A stretch of DNA of 62,720 nt, counting the filler, from Eubacteriales bacterium (GTDB lineage: Bacteria; Bacillota; Clostridia; Oscillospirales; CAG-382), in NCBI GenBank assembly GCA_045636665.1. It is 5 parts of 5 records of this genome, joined end to end, with 100 filler letters (N's around TTAATTAATTAA, not from the genome) between each part and the next. Parts side by side here need not be neighbours in the genome. Positions count along the whole stretch, not along the records: positions 24,017 to 44,421 come from JAZTXY010000068.1; positions 44,522 to 48,973 come from JAZTXY010000069.1; 3 more parts are not named here. The stretch is one strand, 5' to 3'. Each line of letters begins with the position of its first letter. Within the stretch, counting starts at the first letter, position 1. Made by a program: the position numbers. Below, one piece after another: positions 42,001 to 45,000 of this stretch.

Positions 42001-45000
42001 GCGGTGTAAAGCACGCCGGCTATGGCTTGGGCTTTGGACGTCTTATTATGTATATCACCGGCATCACCAACATCCGCGACGTTGAACCCTTCCACAGAAC
42101 AACTGGCAGCGCAGAGTTTTAAACGCTTCGCTTTCGACACAAAACGCGAGCGTTTTGGTCGGTTCTAGTGAGCATCGTTTGCTCGCGCCAACCTTGTGCG
42201 CGCCTTCGGCTTGTCCAAGGTTGCGATGCTCTAAGGTATAAAAATCCACGCGCATGTCGCGGATTTTTATGGAAATTTTATTGAATATTTAAATTGCGGA
42301 GAAGCCGCAATATCGTAATAACCTTATAAAGAGGTATCCTAACATGAACAAGAAACAACAGTTAATCGAACAATTCGAAAAATATAAGGCAATGGGTCTT
42401 AAGCTCGATATGTCGCGCGGTAAGCCCTCTGCAGAGCAGGTTTCTACAATGGAACGTCTTCTTACTGCGGTAAAGACCAATGAAGAATGCTTTTCCGAAA
42501 CCGGAAGCGACTGCCGTAACTATGGCGGTCTTGACGGCATAAACGAAATGAAGCGCCTGCTTGGTGAAATGCTCGGCGTCGGCTCCGACCATATTATCGT
42601 TGGCGGTAACTCGAGCTTGAACCTTATGTACGATACGGTTGCACGCTGTATGCTTCACCCCGTTGAAGACGGCTGTAAGCCTTGGTCGAAATACGAGCAA
42701 ATCACCTTCCTTTGTCCCGTACCCGGTTATGACAGACATTTTGCTATCTGCGAATTTTTCGGTATCAAAATGATCAATATACCTCTTAACCAGGACGGCC
42801 CCGATATGGATATGGTTGAAAAGCTTGTTTCGACCGATGAAACTGTAAAGGGTATGTGGTGTGTGCCCAAGTATTCTAACCCCTCGGGCTATACATATTC
42901 CGCAGAAACCGTTCGCAGAATAGCTTCGATGAAGCCTGCGGCAAAGGATTTCCGTGTGTTCTGGGATAATGCTTACGTGCTTCACGATCTTACCGATCTT
43001 CCCGATGAGCTTGTCGAAATCTTCTCTGAAGCAGAAAAATACGGCAACGAGGATATGTTCTTTGAATTTGCATCCACCTCGAAGATAACCTTCCCCGGCT
43101 CGGGTATCTCCTGCATCGCCGCAAGCCCGCGCAATATCAAGCGCATCCTTAACGCGTTGAAGATTCAGACCATCGGCCACGATAAGCTCAATCAGCTCCG
43201 TCACTCGCGCGTGTTCAAGTGCTATGACGATATCGTAGCGCAGATGAAGGTTCATATGAACATCATCCGCCCCAAGTTCCAAATCATTTACGAAGCGTTT
43301 GAAAACGGCTTTGAGGGCTATGATAACGTTACCTGGACCATCCCCAACGGTGGTTACTTCTTCTGTCTTTCGCTCCCCAACGGCACTGCAAAACGCACCG
43401 TTGAGCTTTGCAAGGAGGCAGGTCTTATCGTTACTCCCGCAGGCGCGATGTTCCCCTACGGTATCGACCCCGAGGACAGCAAATTGCGTATCGCTCCCAC
43501 CTTCCCGTCCTGCGATGAGCTTGCCGTCGCCGCCGACCTTTTAACCGTCTGCGCACGTCTTGCTATCGAAGAAAAATACGGCGAATAATTAAAGCATAAG
43601 AAAAAAGCTTGCCCGATAAGGCAAGCTTTTTTGTGTTATTGTGCTTCTGCAACGCACTCTTTTAAAATGCGAACAAGCTCGGAGCTTTCATTTGAAAGGT
43701 CGCTTAGTTCATAAAAACACATATGGTTTTCAAATTCCGGCTTTAGTTTTTCGTATTCGTCTGATGAAGGAAGTTGATCTTTTTCAAGGACATAATTAGA
43801 TAAGGCGTTTGCCATAAATATATGATCTTCGATTTTAAAACAAATCTCATAGTTGACTTCGCCTGCATAGCGCACAATGTACATATCTACACCTTCTTTG
43901 GTGTATTTATATGCTTTTGTGCCCGTTGCTTTGTTAAATTCTTCGATTGAGTTGTATATATCTATTTTATCCTTGCCCCATTGACCAACGTACACTCTCC
44001 ATGGCTCAAGATCTTTTTCTTCTGCTGACAAAGGATAAACGTTTAAATATGCTTTGAGAGAAATAACAGAATAGTGGTCGTCATGAGGTATGATTGATGT
44101 AATCTCGAAGTTTTGGAATAGCTTTGAAAGATCTATCAGTTTCGGATATGCCGTCGAATAGTCTGATATAAAATTTTCTATGCTGTCATAAAGGGATTGG
44201 GAGGTTTCTGAAATAATTACATCGGATTCGTTTGATGAAAAATTCGATTCGTTATAATCGGAATCCGAATAATAGCTTGTATTGAGGTCGTCCGAATTTT
44301 GTGAAATGCGGGAAATATCAGAAATGGATTCGCTTGTAATATCTTGAATGTTTTCTTGGGGTGCACAAGCCGCAACCGATAAACATAAAAATACGGATAG
44401 AGAGAAAATAAGCGATTTTTTNNNNNNNNNNNNNNNNNNNNNNNNNNNNNNNNNNNNNNNNNNNNTTAATTAATTAANNNNNNNNNNNNNNNNNNNNNNN
44501 NNNNNNNNNNNNNNNNNNNNNGGAGTTGATGTGATGTGTTGTCTTTCCTAAGACCGCTTGGCCTCCGACTTCTTCATTTGCAACAGCGCCGATTATCGGA
44601 CGTTCTTCGGGAGTGAGAGAGCCCATACCGCGCAAAATTGCGGTAAGAGCGCCTTTCTTACCAAGATATTTTATTCTTATATCTTCAAGCGAGGTTTCCG
44701 CCGCGGCAATTTCTGCCACTGCGGTTGCTCTGATAGATTCAAGTTGTGCTTTCATAGTTTTTACCTTTCACGGATTATTCAAGATAGTCCTTAAGTTTTT
44801 TAGATCTGCTGGGATGACGGAGCTTACGCAATGCCTTTGCTTCGATCTGACGGATACGTTCACGGGTGATGTCAAACACCTTACCAACCTCTTCAAGGGT
44901 GCGAGGTCTTCCGTCTTCAAGTCCGAAACGCAATTTAAGAACCGCTTCTTCACGGGGAGTGAGGGTGTGAAGAACTTCCAAAAGATGCTCGCGAAGCATT

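Follow-up and report, generated by a model that had tools for sequence, protein, structure and literature searches.

The window is the whole stretch of DNA that was analysed (62,720 nucleotides, filler included), joined from five parts of the MAG GCA_045636665.1, an Eubacteriales bacterium of the family CAG-382. A search of the window with the covariance model R1 gave one copy only of a dispersed repeat, the type copy, which sits between the stop codon of a class-II aminoacyl-tRNA synthetase (aaRS) gene and an aspartate aminotransferase gene. Its core (42123-42285; 171.1 bits, E 5e-50) lies inside the interval 42111-42295 proposed earlier, and the type copy is thereby confirmed. The locus is composed of the following parts:

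40716..42122 (+): upstream gene, class-II aminoacyl-tRNA synthetase of the Asp/Lys/Asn type, asnS-like (ORF; Pfam tRNA-synt_2, 2.2e-64, and anticodon OB fold)
42123..42135 (+): 5' terminal motif ACGCTTCGCTTTC (family consensus TCGCTnCGCTCTC), directly after the synthetase stop (alignments)
42135..42161 (+): hairpin 1, CGACACAAAACGC..GCGTTTTGGTCG, predicted at -11.4 kcal/mol, z -3.34
42162..42169 (+): conserved linker, GTTCTAGT in the type copy, consensus GTTTTGTG (alignments)
42170..42231 (+): hairpin domain 2 (predicted fold and alignment pairing)
42170..42177 with 42224..42231 (+): outer stem of domain 2, GAGCATCG pairing with CGATGCTC
42178..42189 (+): conserved internal-loop motif of domain 2, TTTGCTCGCGCC
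42190..42196 with 42216..42222 (+): inner hairpin of domain 2, AACCTTG pairing with CAAGGTT, tip GCC/GGC
42232..42240 (+): conserved linker TAAGGTATA, columns nearly invariant in the alignments
42238..42270 (+): hairpin 3, ATAAAAATCCAC-GCGCATGTC-GCGGATTTTTAT (predicted fold and alignment)
42271..42285 (+): 3' tail GGAAATTTTATTGAA (consensus ..TTTTATTGTA), where the modelled core ends (alignments, R1)
42294..42310 (+): small hairpin 4, TTGCGG-AGAAG-CCGCAA, beyond the tail, predicted at -9.3 kcal/mol, z -3.79
42344..43588 (+): downstream gene, aspartate aminotransferase (Pfam Asp_aminotransf, 9.6e-146)

The TAA at 42120-42122 is the native stop of the synthetase, as C-terminus and stop are unchanged in relatives whose site is empty; at the other side, the RBS region AAAGAGGTAT is retained just upstream of the aminotransferase gene. 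The 5' junction of the element is precise in copies with target duplications. The place of hairpin 1 is taken in other copies by other hairpin types, among them a 31-nt module (module M). The fourth hairpin is present at the filled aaRS loci of G003 and G005 and absent from the empty sites, and its place is taken by another small hairpin in other copies and in other genera; in the type copy it is probably part of the inserted block.

The loop of hairpin 3 is conserved as GCRCATGTC, and the AAGG of linker TAAGGTATA is retained in other genera. The type-copy hairpin 3 is of flavour 1, with an A-run on the 5' side and a T-run on the 3' side, a sequence that looks terminator-like on both strands, and its predicted fold has -10.6 kcal/mol on the given strand against -14.1 kcal/mol on the opposite one. 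About half of the copies have the 3' T-run, and the other flavour has its T-run on the 5' side; at the run pairs, AU occurs in 25-27 copies and UA in 27-28. A scan for consensus promoters and terminators gave no site in 41900-42500. An outward promoter in the TTATTGTA tail was weighed and found no support. A mini-ORF starting at the conserved ATG of the hairpin 3 loop was also considered, and was rejected because the A5/T5 flip alters the peptide completely.

Copies, placement and turnover

The earlier note counted 28 copies in this MAG. Our own R1 model returned 27 at E<=0.001 and recovered all five of the further copies named there, so only the exact number changes. Other searches of the MAG gave blastn matches on 16 other contigs, 25 and then 32 nhmmer hits, and, for a core HMM of 181 positions, 34 matches at E<=0.01 when fragments are counted in. 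The statement that the long intergenic regions of the genome are built from the element does not hold, as a hit was found in only 19 of the 184 spacers of at least 200 nt. No Rfam family is matched (in 41900-42500 the best E is 0.69, with a score that stays far under the gathering threshold; none at E<=1 on C106:5800-7800), in agreement with the earlier search and with the view of a new dispersed, structured element, and none of the four papers listed as mentioning CAG-382 is on repeats. The repeat family, of about 160-190 bases and previously undescribed, is real in this group of uncultured gut Clostridia.

Within the genus, 47 of the 60 other genomes match R1 at E<=0.001, a count that differs from the earlier one because another sample of genomes was used. 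With this MAG included, matches occur in 48 of 61 genomes, 32 of which have nine or more copies, and 13 have none. Diverged relatives of the repeat occur in five further genera of the same family. A pattern scan of 185,579 species genomes gave, among the matches listed, single hits in unrelated phyla, at chance level.

The position of the copies was counted on gene calls from a home-made codon-score caller. As the earlier note had described, most copies lie in the 3'-UTR or in an intercistronic position behind a co-oriented gene (48 of 55); for 21 of the 48, the distance from its stop codon to the element is 0-3 nt. Between co-directional genes, 36 copies are co-oriented and 3 opposite (36 + 3 of 50), and in other genera 29 of 32 copies are co-oriented with the upstream gene. 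Eight copies in G000 follow their upstream gene although their own strand has the minority of the coding bases within 15 kb; 17 of the 27 copies have a positive GC skew on their strand, a weak sign of replication-linked orientation. Syntenic housekeeping genes flank the copies (aaRS, EF-P, an ABC operon, SAH hydrolase, DnaE), and the occurrence inside the ABC-DUF1854-ABC operon was confirmed. The 5' flanks vary and show no conserved target tetranucleotide, only a loose preference for ..AG before the junction. The co-directional spacers of the genome have a median of 16 nt and thus offer few tolerable positions.

Since the orthologous spacers of relatives are empty (8-47 nt), the copies are secondary insertions, and mobility, which the earlier note had left open, is shown by these empty sites. 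The spacer between the synthetase and aminotransferase genes (13 loci parsed) measures 221-284 nt in G000, G003, G018 and G023 against 14-47 nt in eight relatives, and that of the ABC operon 414, 339 and 349 nt when filled against 20, 26 and 8 nt when empty. At locus C85b the spacer has 444 nt; its shortest counterparts, those of G005 and G002, have 157-164 nt, while G018 has 210 nt and G023, where a remnant is left, 228 nt. Another site is filled in G005 (C7), its counterpart in G000 (C63) being a 28-nt spacer, and one G000-specific block contains a copy of the element and a 94-aa ORF.

Four loci carry target duplications of 15-66 nt that abut exactly the 5' end of the element, with 9-103 nt of extra sequence on the 3' side; duplications so long and so variable fit no known transposase. 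A junction-abutting repeat of at least 7 nt was found in 7 of 60 copies (control rate 4%), five of them exact, of 15-59 nt, at four loci and of unequal lengths, and in about 53 of the 60 copies target duplication does not rise over the chance level. At C85b the additional 3' sequences are homologous between species and hence represent one old event.

Once in place, the element is remodelled. The alignments distinguish discrete types of hairpins 1 and 2 and the two flavours of hairpin 3; truncation points cluster at module borders, and breaks and nested insertions recur at the hairpin 3 loop. At locus C85a the flanking anchors are 98.7-100% identical to those of G003, while the element body has 43% identity and its best paralogue in the same genome 70%, relatedness being judged by pairwise identities. 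Element bodies have thus been swapped at fixed sites, and at the aaRS site hairpin domain 2 has been exchanged between G000 and G003. Module M is a 31-nt mini-hairpin that nests in hairpin loops; it was found at about 26 places (from 30 pattern matches, of which some overlap), by itself, in tandem, as hairpin 1 or inverted within the hairpin 3 loop. In G044, five copies of the element stand in tandem, the tail being followed by the next 5' motif within 4 nt. The empty sites, the adjacency to stop codons within 0-3 nt, the target duplications, the body swapping and the nested mini-hairpin are all new with respect to the earlier note.

Helices, strand and a possible RNA function

The five helices in three hairpin domains described before are upheld: in 60 copies, 93.6% of the cells are paired as against 70.0% in shuffled alignments, none of 500 being as high. 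Double changes occur at 34 of the 41 pairs, and there are 552 compensated cells against 190.9 expected and 36-52% pairing in slid controls, in copies that are paralogues or orthologues, so that these counts are not independent events, and in alignments (A3 and A4) fitted to the model. The 34 copies from four other genera give 87.9% paired against 60.5% in shuffles (0 of 500 reach it). In the 60-copy alignment, helix 1 (10 pairs, 8 with double changes) is paired in 91.7%, the outer stem of domain 2 (8 pairs, 7 with double changes) in 96.5%, its inner stem in 91.7%, and hairpin 3 (13 pairs, 10 with double changes, a fixed A.C position included) in 94.5%; in the other genera the outer stem of domain 2 keeps 97.1% and the inner one 64%.

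The further claim, that U-G wobbles fit one strand only and reveal selection at the RNA level, is not borne out, as the strand-informative positions point both ways. The pair at the base of hairpin 3 (T.G in 33 and T-A in 16 of 60 copies) fits the given strand, the inner end of the domain 2 stem has T.G in 25 of the 34 rows from other genera (29 with letters), and the G.U pairs adjoining the shared helices (71 against 44) favour the given strand as well. Another pair of hairpin 3 (A.C 32, A-T 21) is compatible with the opposite strand only, and the opposite strand folds better by MFE in 26 of 32 copies. The cells of the 41 pairs comprise 2041 Watson-Crick, 21 G.T, 65 A.C (G.T on the opposite strand) and 77 other mismatches; 21 of the 2204 cells are wobbles, about 1%, and A.C falls to 33 once the fixed site is left out. 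Counted on the model alignment, the pairs speak for neither strand, and the tests overall give no strand call. With informative positions on both sides and so few wobbles, a strand-symmetric constraint at the DNA level, or propagation from intact master copies, fits better than RNA selection on the given strand.

These counts bear on the possibility that the element is primarily a cis-acting RNA module with a function in 3'-UTRs and between cistrons, as a stabiliser, an attenuator or a protein platform; its structure would then be under selection as RNA, and the copies would spread by their usefulness. The orientation tied to the adjacent gene, even against the local strand majority, is what such a module would display, and so are the covarying stems, the unpaired GCTCGCGCC, AAGG and GCRCATGTC motifs conserved across genera, and the T.G/T-A alternation at the base of hairpin 3. 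In the RNA library of run X20, one contig runs from the final 18 nt of the synthetase gene into the element, of which it covers the initial 128 nt, and shows two differences; this is a weak hint of transcription, since DNA may be present in RNA libraries. We nevertheless consider an RNA module unlikely, because wobbles are rarer than A.C mismatches, one conserved pair suits the opposite strand only and that strand mostly folds better, half of the copies have a hairpin 3 flavour that is not terminator-like on either strand, many close relatives lack the element at the same housekeeping loci, and 13 of 61 genomes of the genus have no match.

In none of the public runs searched did the share of matching words exceed 0.22, and the three RNA libraries and one other run yielded only Logan contigs of related strains, from which strand, ends and level are not readable. 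As a separate observation, not counted as a finding, RNA-library contigs in two runs of one study end near 42112-42119.

Nature and spread of the element

The element resembles the mosaic palindromic repeats of other bacteria rather than a proven functional RNA. We lean towards regarding it as a non-autonomous, mosaic palindromic DNA repeat of the REP/BIME, BOX and SPRITE kind, tolerated as a 3'-UTR. It is built from exchangeable hairpin modules (hairpin 1, the two-level hairpin 2, hairpin 3 and often a small hairpin 4) with short conserved linkers between them. It has entered spacers of originally 8-47 nt, as seen at the empty sites, its bodies being later reshuffled or replaced at the same site, and a separate 31-nt mini-hairpin nests into hairpin loops. 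Spread and repair of the arms may proceed via single-stranded hairpin DNA, which would explain stems that are perfectly Watson-Crick on both strands, either through replication-linked template switching with ectopic gene conversion or through an enzyme recognising the hairpins and the conserved GCRCATGTC loop. Selection would then spare only the harmless insertions, namely those directly behind a stop, before the next RBS and in the orientation of the upstream gene, and the element would be carried as the 3'-UTR or intercistronic RNA of that gene. As RNA, its hairpins probably serve as barriers at the 3' end or attenuate transcription in part, the look of an intrinsic terminator being restricted to the hairpin 3 flavour with the A-run 5' and the U-run 3'.

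REP/BIME repeats (REPIN) of Enterobacteria and Pseudomonas are extragenic, mostly situated behind genes, and consist of palindromic mosaics with conserved linkers; their copy number varies among relatives, and they lack terminal inverted repeats and, as a rule, target duplications. The element described here shares all these traits. Its units are longer, however, and form one ordered block of three domains and about 160 nt with a fixed polarity, and its copies begin 0-3 nt past stop codons. REP and REPIN are defined by a short palindrome with a conserved GTAG-type head, whereas the alignments of the element show no such head, its 5' motif being TCGCTnCGCTCTC, and it is not tracked by a RAYT (Y1) gene. 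Nesting, too, has a parallel, as small dispersed repeats of cyanobacteria nest in larger ones; module M likewise enters the loops of other repeats with the structure kept, although phylum and sequence are different and module M doubles as an alternative hairpin 1. In comparison with classical MITEs, the ends TCGCTnCGCTCTC and TTTTATTGTA are not complementary, so there are no terminal inverted repeats, and neither a fixed short target duplication nor a parent IS with the same ends was found.

According to PMC3049150, REP/BIME can attenuate transcription within operons. The BOX elements of Streptococcus pneumoniae are presented in the same paper as modular (boxA-boxB-boxC), variable in size, strongly paired and co-transcribed with neighbour genes, with lower density in close relatives, and with terminal inverted repeats, target duplications and a proposed parent IS (PMC3049150). 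Going by these descriptions of BOX and SPRITE, the element is similarly modular, variable in size and strongly paired, but has no inverted termini, and no parent IS was found. For SPRITE of S. pneumoniae, the paper gives about 30 copies near the 3' ends of CDS, a terminator-like hairpin with a U-rich tract, neither empty site nor target duplication definable, a low GC content (28%), a single long stem and enrichment between convergent genes (PMC3049150). The element is likewise near the 3' ends of CDS, has a similar copy number and, in about half of the copies, a hairpin 3 that looks terminator-like; it differs in its GC content (about 41-58% across the copies found), its three hairpin domains, its location mostly between co-directional genes and the non-terminator flavour of hairpin 3 in about half of the copies.

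Another possibility is a single-stranded DNA element of the HUH type, like REP/REPIN with RAYT or the PATE of IS200/IS605, or a rolling-circle element nicked at the hairpin 3 loop. Hairpin richness, the conserved loop on a variable stem, the breaks and nested insertions at that loop, the lack of terminal inverted repeats and, in most copies, of target duplications would agree with such an origin, and the fixed A.C position could mark the strand. We find it rather improbable all the same. Y1_Tnp (PF01797) was detected at E<=0.001 in 7 of 24 sampled genomes of the genus (5 strong; MAGs being incomplete), and not in the element-rich G005, G013 (96% complete), G023, G018 and G002, while G000 has only a 38-residue fragment. 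The fetched IS200-like loci lack element ends, and TnpB was not found in four high-quality element-rich genomes. The element has no fixed 5' tetra- or pentanucleotide of the kind of IS200/IS605 PATE, and long duplications such as those at four loci would be unusual for HUH enzymes.

Overall, none of Y1, RT, IS110, TnpB and the DDE transposases tracks the element. Profiles for rve, DDE_Tnp_1, Transposase_mut and TnpB gave nothing in G044, G065, G013, G051 and G000, IS110 exceeded the cut-off in 1 of 61 genomes, and Y2_Tnp was found in 0 of 61, with control genomes likewise giving nothing. As for an autonomous parent, no same-strand 5' and 3' motifs more than about 350 nt apart were present among the matches listed for five genomes. 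The mobile-element reading is thus left without an engine. A more speculative and doubtful route is transcription-coupled single-strand insertion without a classical transposase, in which the end of translation would leave RNA polymerase past the stop with the non-template strand exposed, and the hairpin-folded element strand would be joined there by an enzyme recognising the GCRCATGTC loop or by host replication and repair. Such a mechanism would jointly explain the stop adjacency, the gene-tied orientation, the long variable duplications and the cassette-like replacement of bodies.

For a SINE-like retroelement, the RNA of which a reverse transcriptase turns back into DNA, one would expect a precise junction at one side, a variable end at the other and duplications of varying length, which is the configuration of the four loci with duplications at the 5' end and extra sequence at the 3' side. 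Such an origin is very improbable, given that most copies are free of duplications, that the 3' extras of C85b go back to a single old event and that RVT_1 was detected in no more than 16 of the 61 genus genomes, being not found in G000, G003, G005, G023, G044 (97% complete), G065 and G013, several of which are element-rich and 95-97% complete.

Integron attC sites lie behind the stop, are co-oriented, work as a folded single strand, conserve structure while varying in sequence, and have a strand-marking unpaired base. An attC-like recombination site marking gene cassettes can scarcely be credited here, despite the same position, orientation and conservation of structure over sequence and the one G000-specific block with the 94-aa ORF, because the flanking genes are no cassettes, being syntenic housekeeping genes that relatives have with no element beside them, the element moves with no gene attached, and R''/R' core-site motifs are not seen at its ends; no integrase was seen either, though no search aimed at one was made.

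If the repeat is a tolerated palindromic DNA repeat, as we favour, one family of abundant uncultured herbivore-gut Clostridia would have a REP/BOX-like 'repeatome' of its own, with from 10 to more than 45 copies in a genome of 1.2-2.4 Mb, spread in genomes where no classical transposase was found. Tightly packed operons would have been split by it, with spacers growing from 8-26 nt to 340-840 nt, and this lengthening probably altered the read-through and mRNA ends of housekeeping genes. The stop-adjacent position, the transcription-tied orientation and the long variable duplications would make it a tractable case for how BIME-, BOX- and SPRITE-like repeats move. MAG assemblies are fragmented by the repeat, since several copies lie at contig ends, and the covariance model offers a ready annotation marker for this bacterial family. 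A second 'repeat family' of about 200 nt (33 nhmmer hits at E<=1e-3) was set aside, as it looks like a repeated protein-coding stretch, presumably dockerin repeats, and is not a DNA element.

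Type locus, copy number and conserved pairing

The type copy of the element is located on contig C68 of the window, where 221 nt separate the stop codon of a synthetase gene from an aminotransferase gene. The covariance model R1, which is based on 13 hand-checked copies and 41 pairs, matched positions 42123-42285 (171.1 bits), and its search found this sole copy within the window. Since the window consists of contigs joined by N runs (23917-24016, 44422-44521, 48974-49073 and 57351-57450; five contigs end to end), adjacency across the joins is meaningless. The parts of the locus are, in order:

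40716-42122, class-II aminoacyl-tRNA synthetase gene, upstream of the element
ACGCTTCGCTTTC, 5' motif, the first part of the element
42135-42161, hairpin 1 (hp1), after the 5' motif, then a linker
42170-42231, two-level hairpin domain 2 (hp2) with the conserved internal-loop motif GCTCGCGCC
TAAGGTATA, linker between hp2 and hp3
42238-42270, hairpin 3 (hp3) with the loop GCGCATGTC and an A-run and a T-run on its flanks
TTTTATTGAA, tail, 3' of hp3
42294-42310, further small hairpin beyond the tail
42344-43588, aspartate aminotransferase gene, downstream of the element

Antisense to the synthetase, an open frame of 403 aa (40929-42140, minus strand) was rejected by the codon-score caller and is a shadow frame.

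In the MAG (1.8 Mb), blastn located pieces of the element on 16 further contigs. Matches in the MAG numbered 25 and then 32 with nhmmer, 34 with a core HMM (E<=0.01, fragments counted) and 27 with R1 (E<=0.001). The repeat described in the earlier note is thereby borne out, with 27 copies by our own count in place of the 28 reported there. No Rfam family matched it. The element is a new, abundant, modular, hairpin-built repeat.

Its structure exceeds chance, as had been claimed. In a model-based alignment of 60 copies, drawn from this MAG (G000) and from 29 loci in relatives, 93.6% of 2204 cells were paired versus 70.0% in shuffles, none of 500 shuffles reaching this value; double changes occurred at 34 of 41 pairs, and 552 cells were compensated versus 190.9 expected, the copies being paralogues or orthologues and the alignments A3 and A4 fitted to the model. 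Slid controls were 36-52% paired. The long-range stem of hp2 and hp3 were recovered independently, with many pair types, by RNAalifold from a plain MAFFT alignment that was not model-fitted. In four other genera (34 copies) 87.9% of cells were paired versus 60.5% in shuffles (0/500), the inner hp2 helix being weak there (64% paired).

The U.G wobble pairs at two sites, from which selection on the RNA of the given strand had been proposed, do exist, but that selection is not upheld by the helices as a whole: the cells in the 41 pairs comprise 2041 Watson-Crick, 21 G.T, 65 A.C and 77 other mismatches, so that wobble pairs make up about 1% of helix cells and the given strand shows no excess. At one hp3 pair A.C (32 copies) alternates with A-T (21), which is compatible with pairing on the opposite strand alone. 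RNA folding was better for the opposite strand in 26 of 32 copies, by a mean of 4.3 kcal/mol, whereas G.U pairs beside the shared helices lean the other way, toward the given strand (71 vs 44). The pairing pattern does not fit selection on given-strand RNA. The scarcity of wobble pairs is consistent with a strand-symmetric constraint; alternatively, the copies may descend from intact masters, or their quasi-palindromes may be corrected by template switching, a known mechanism.

Insertion and orientation behind genes

The synthetase-aminotransferase gene pair is syntenic within the genus, and 13 of its loci were parsed, leaving out three on the other strand and four without an anchor. In four genomes (G000 and the relatives G003, G018 and G023) the spacer is 221-284 nt long with the element inside, in G005 it is 129 nt with an element remnant, and in eight it is just 14-47 nt, holding the stop codon, a ribosome-binding site and the start. 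Filled and empty sites share the same synthetase C-terminus and stop codon, and the distance from this stop to the element is 0-3 nt. Likewise, one spacer of the ABC-DUF1854-ABC operon measures 414 nt in G000, 339 nt in G003 and 349 nt in G005, versus 20 nt (G023), 26 nt (G018) and 8 nt (G002) without the element; the element directly adjoins the stop in both G003 and G005 (TGA followed by CGCTTCGC, TAA followed by CGCTACGC). Additional filled/empty or filled/remnant locus pairs were found. The element has entered short spacers secondarily.

Position and orientation are tied to the upstream gene. According to gene calls by our own codon-score caller, the upstream gene is co-oriented for 48 of 55 copies with such a call (seven are otherwise), and between co-directional genes 36 copies are co-oriented versus three, although these counts are not independent because some orthologous sites contribute a row from each of several genomes. 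The element follows the stop codon by 0-3 nt in 21 of the 48, and a separate mini-hairpin, module M, intervenes in seven more. In other genera 29 of 32 copies are co-oriented, farther from the stop. Eight of 27 copies in G000 match the direction of the upstream gene although, within 15 kb, their strand carries fewer than half of the coding bases, and in only 17 of 27 does the element strand have a positive GC skew; orientation thus tracks the adjacent gene and not a replication proxy. This is a compact genome, in which co-directional spacers have a median of 16 nt and 61% of them are <=30 nt. Only 19 of 184 spacers >=200 nt hold the element, so the earlier note overstated its role as the building block of the long spacers.

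Together with one copy (C77a) a 94-aa ORF of unknown kind is present (G000:C77:37012-37300, minus strand); the close relative G003 has only a 56-nt element remnant at this site.

Modules, turnover and target duplications

Both hp1 and hp2 occur as discrete alternative types, and hp3 has two flavours, with the A-run 5' and the T-run 3' or the reverse, around a constant core and loop. Truncated copies have their breakpoints at module borders. Module M, of 31 nt (CCCCAAAAA-N6-8-TTTTCGGGGACCCC), has 30 pattern matches, which overlap in part and mark about 26 sites, for example at G000 C128:6020-6051, C124:16860-16890, C22:1628-1699 and C43:7693-7763, outside the window. It stands alone after stop codons, in tandem, as hp1, or inverted within the loop of hp3, immediately ahead of GCGCATGTC; it is also nested in another palindromic repeat family, and lies inverted in hairpin loops of two repeat families other than its own, and its nested form is present in one RNA-library contig.

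The bodies are reshuffled and replaced at fixed sites. At the C85a copy, identity to G003 is 98.7-100% in the flank anchors and 43% in the element bodies, the best paralogue in G000 being 70% identical; at the synthetase site the difference between G000 and G003 is confined to hp2. Elsewhere the closest relatives are orthologous copies (0.95, 0.81). Five near-identical tandem copies directly follow one stop codon at G044:C1:22928-23769 (locus L173), with an 11-nt duplicated 5' motif at two joints, and a tandem of two copies is located on G000:C101.

Target duplications above chance are absent in most copies. At four loci long duplications abut the 5' end of the element exactly: about 66 nt (in G043, 59 nt exact) within a divergent promoter region; 29-32 nt with the ribosome-binding site and codons 1-7 of a PHP/DnaE-type gene; 39-48 nt taking in a terminator; and 25 nt within a terminator. 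Controls gave 10-13 nt at most. Between the 3' tail and the second duplication copy lie 9-103 nt of other sequence. The duplications fall where duplication-free insertion would have broken a promoter, gene start or terminator, so survivorship is sufficient to explain their locations.

A shared motif, CAATCTGCATCCACTCTGCTACGC, with a hairpin before it, recurs downstream of several copies (e.g. G000:C128 ~6290-6320, C34 ~430-470, loci L110 and L131).

Distribution, probable nature and neighbouring repeats

In the genus, R1 matched 48 of 61 genomes at E<=0.001 and none of the remaining 13, and 32 genomes had 9-45 matches each, with 47 candidates scored per genome. At E<=1e-6, 53 of 151 genomes of the family matched, spread over six of 15 genera. 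Five genomes of four other genera hold 17-32 diverged copies each, which retain GCTCGCGCC, AAGG, the GCRCATGTC loop and the tail and carry a genus-specific small hairpin beyond it. Among the matches listed in a species-genome scan, multi-copy motif matches came only from MAGs of uncultured Eubacteriales, Clostridia and Oscillospiraceae from animal guts.

By analogy, the element is probably selfish DNA of the REP/BIME, BOX or SPRITE kind. PMC3049150 describes BOX as modular and SPRITE as having about 30 copies near the 3' ends of coding sequences and being terminator-like. The hairpins would act in single-stranded DNA, during spread or repair, and the element would survive only at harmless places; a retained copy might then be carried as a putative 3'-UTR RNA, with hairpins that could be protective or attenuating. 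That the element is primarily a functional RNA is the main rival reading, which we consider unlikely, though the orientation rule and the conserved loops keep it in consideration.

As MAGs lose repeated genes, the following negatives for a mobilising enzyme are absence of evidence only. At E<=0.001, Y1_Tnp was detected in seven (five strong) of the 24 genomes sampled from the genus and did not track the element, and the IS200-like loci examined had no element ends. Of 61 genomes, 16 had RVT_1, which several element-rich ones (95-97% complete) lacked; IS110 exceeded the cut-off in just one of 61. In G044, G065, G013, G051 and G000, searches for TnpB, rve, DDE_Tnp_1 and Transposase_mut turned up nothing beyond a single marginal TnpB match. 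The Y2_Tnp profile gave zero matches, also in control genomes. The IS110 profile also has a weak, RuvC-like match within a 1446-aa open frame (G000:C24:1182-1421); such matches occur in G000 and five relatives in frames of ~1420-1450 aa, which look like a Cas9-type gene, and two more weak ones in 222- and 412-aa frames.

For literature mentioning CAG-382, titles and abstract openings held nothing on repeats, and literature pairing MITE with Ruminococcaceae held nothing relevant.

A second palindromic family of ~250 nt shares the same long spacers of G000 (C52:95-542, C114:4648-4987, C106:6043-6412, C6:2022-2274, C130:16711-16930), with arms such as GGCTTCCCC..GGGGAAGC and GAC(T/G)GATGAGGGG..CCCCTCATC; Rfam had no match on C106:5800-7800. 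Another ~200-nt "repeat" of G000, with 33 nhmmer matches (E<=1e-3; e.g. C40:9979-10178, C126:23355-23553, C104:5167-5362), resembles a repeated protein-coding stretch, presumably tandem dockerin-type repeats, which, if so, would suggest a cellulosome-like protein set.
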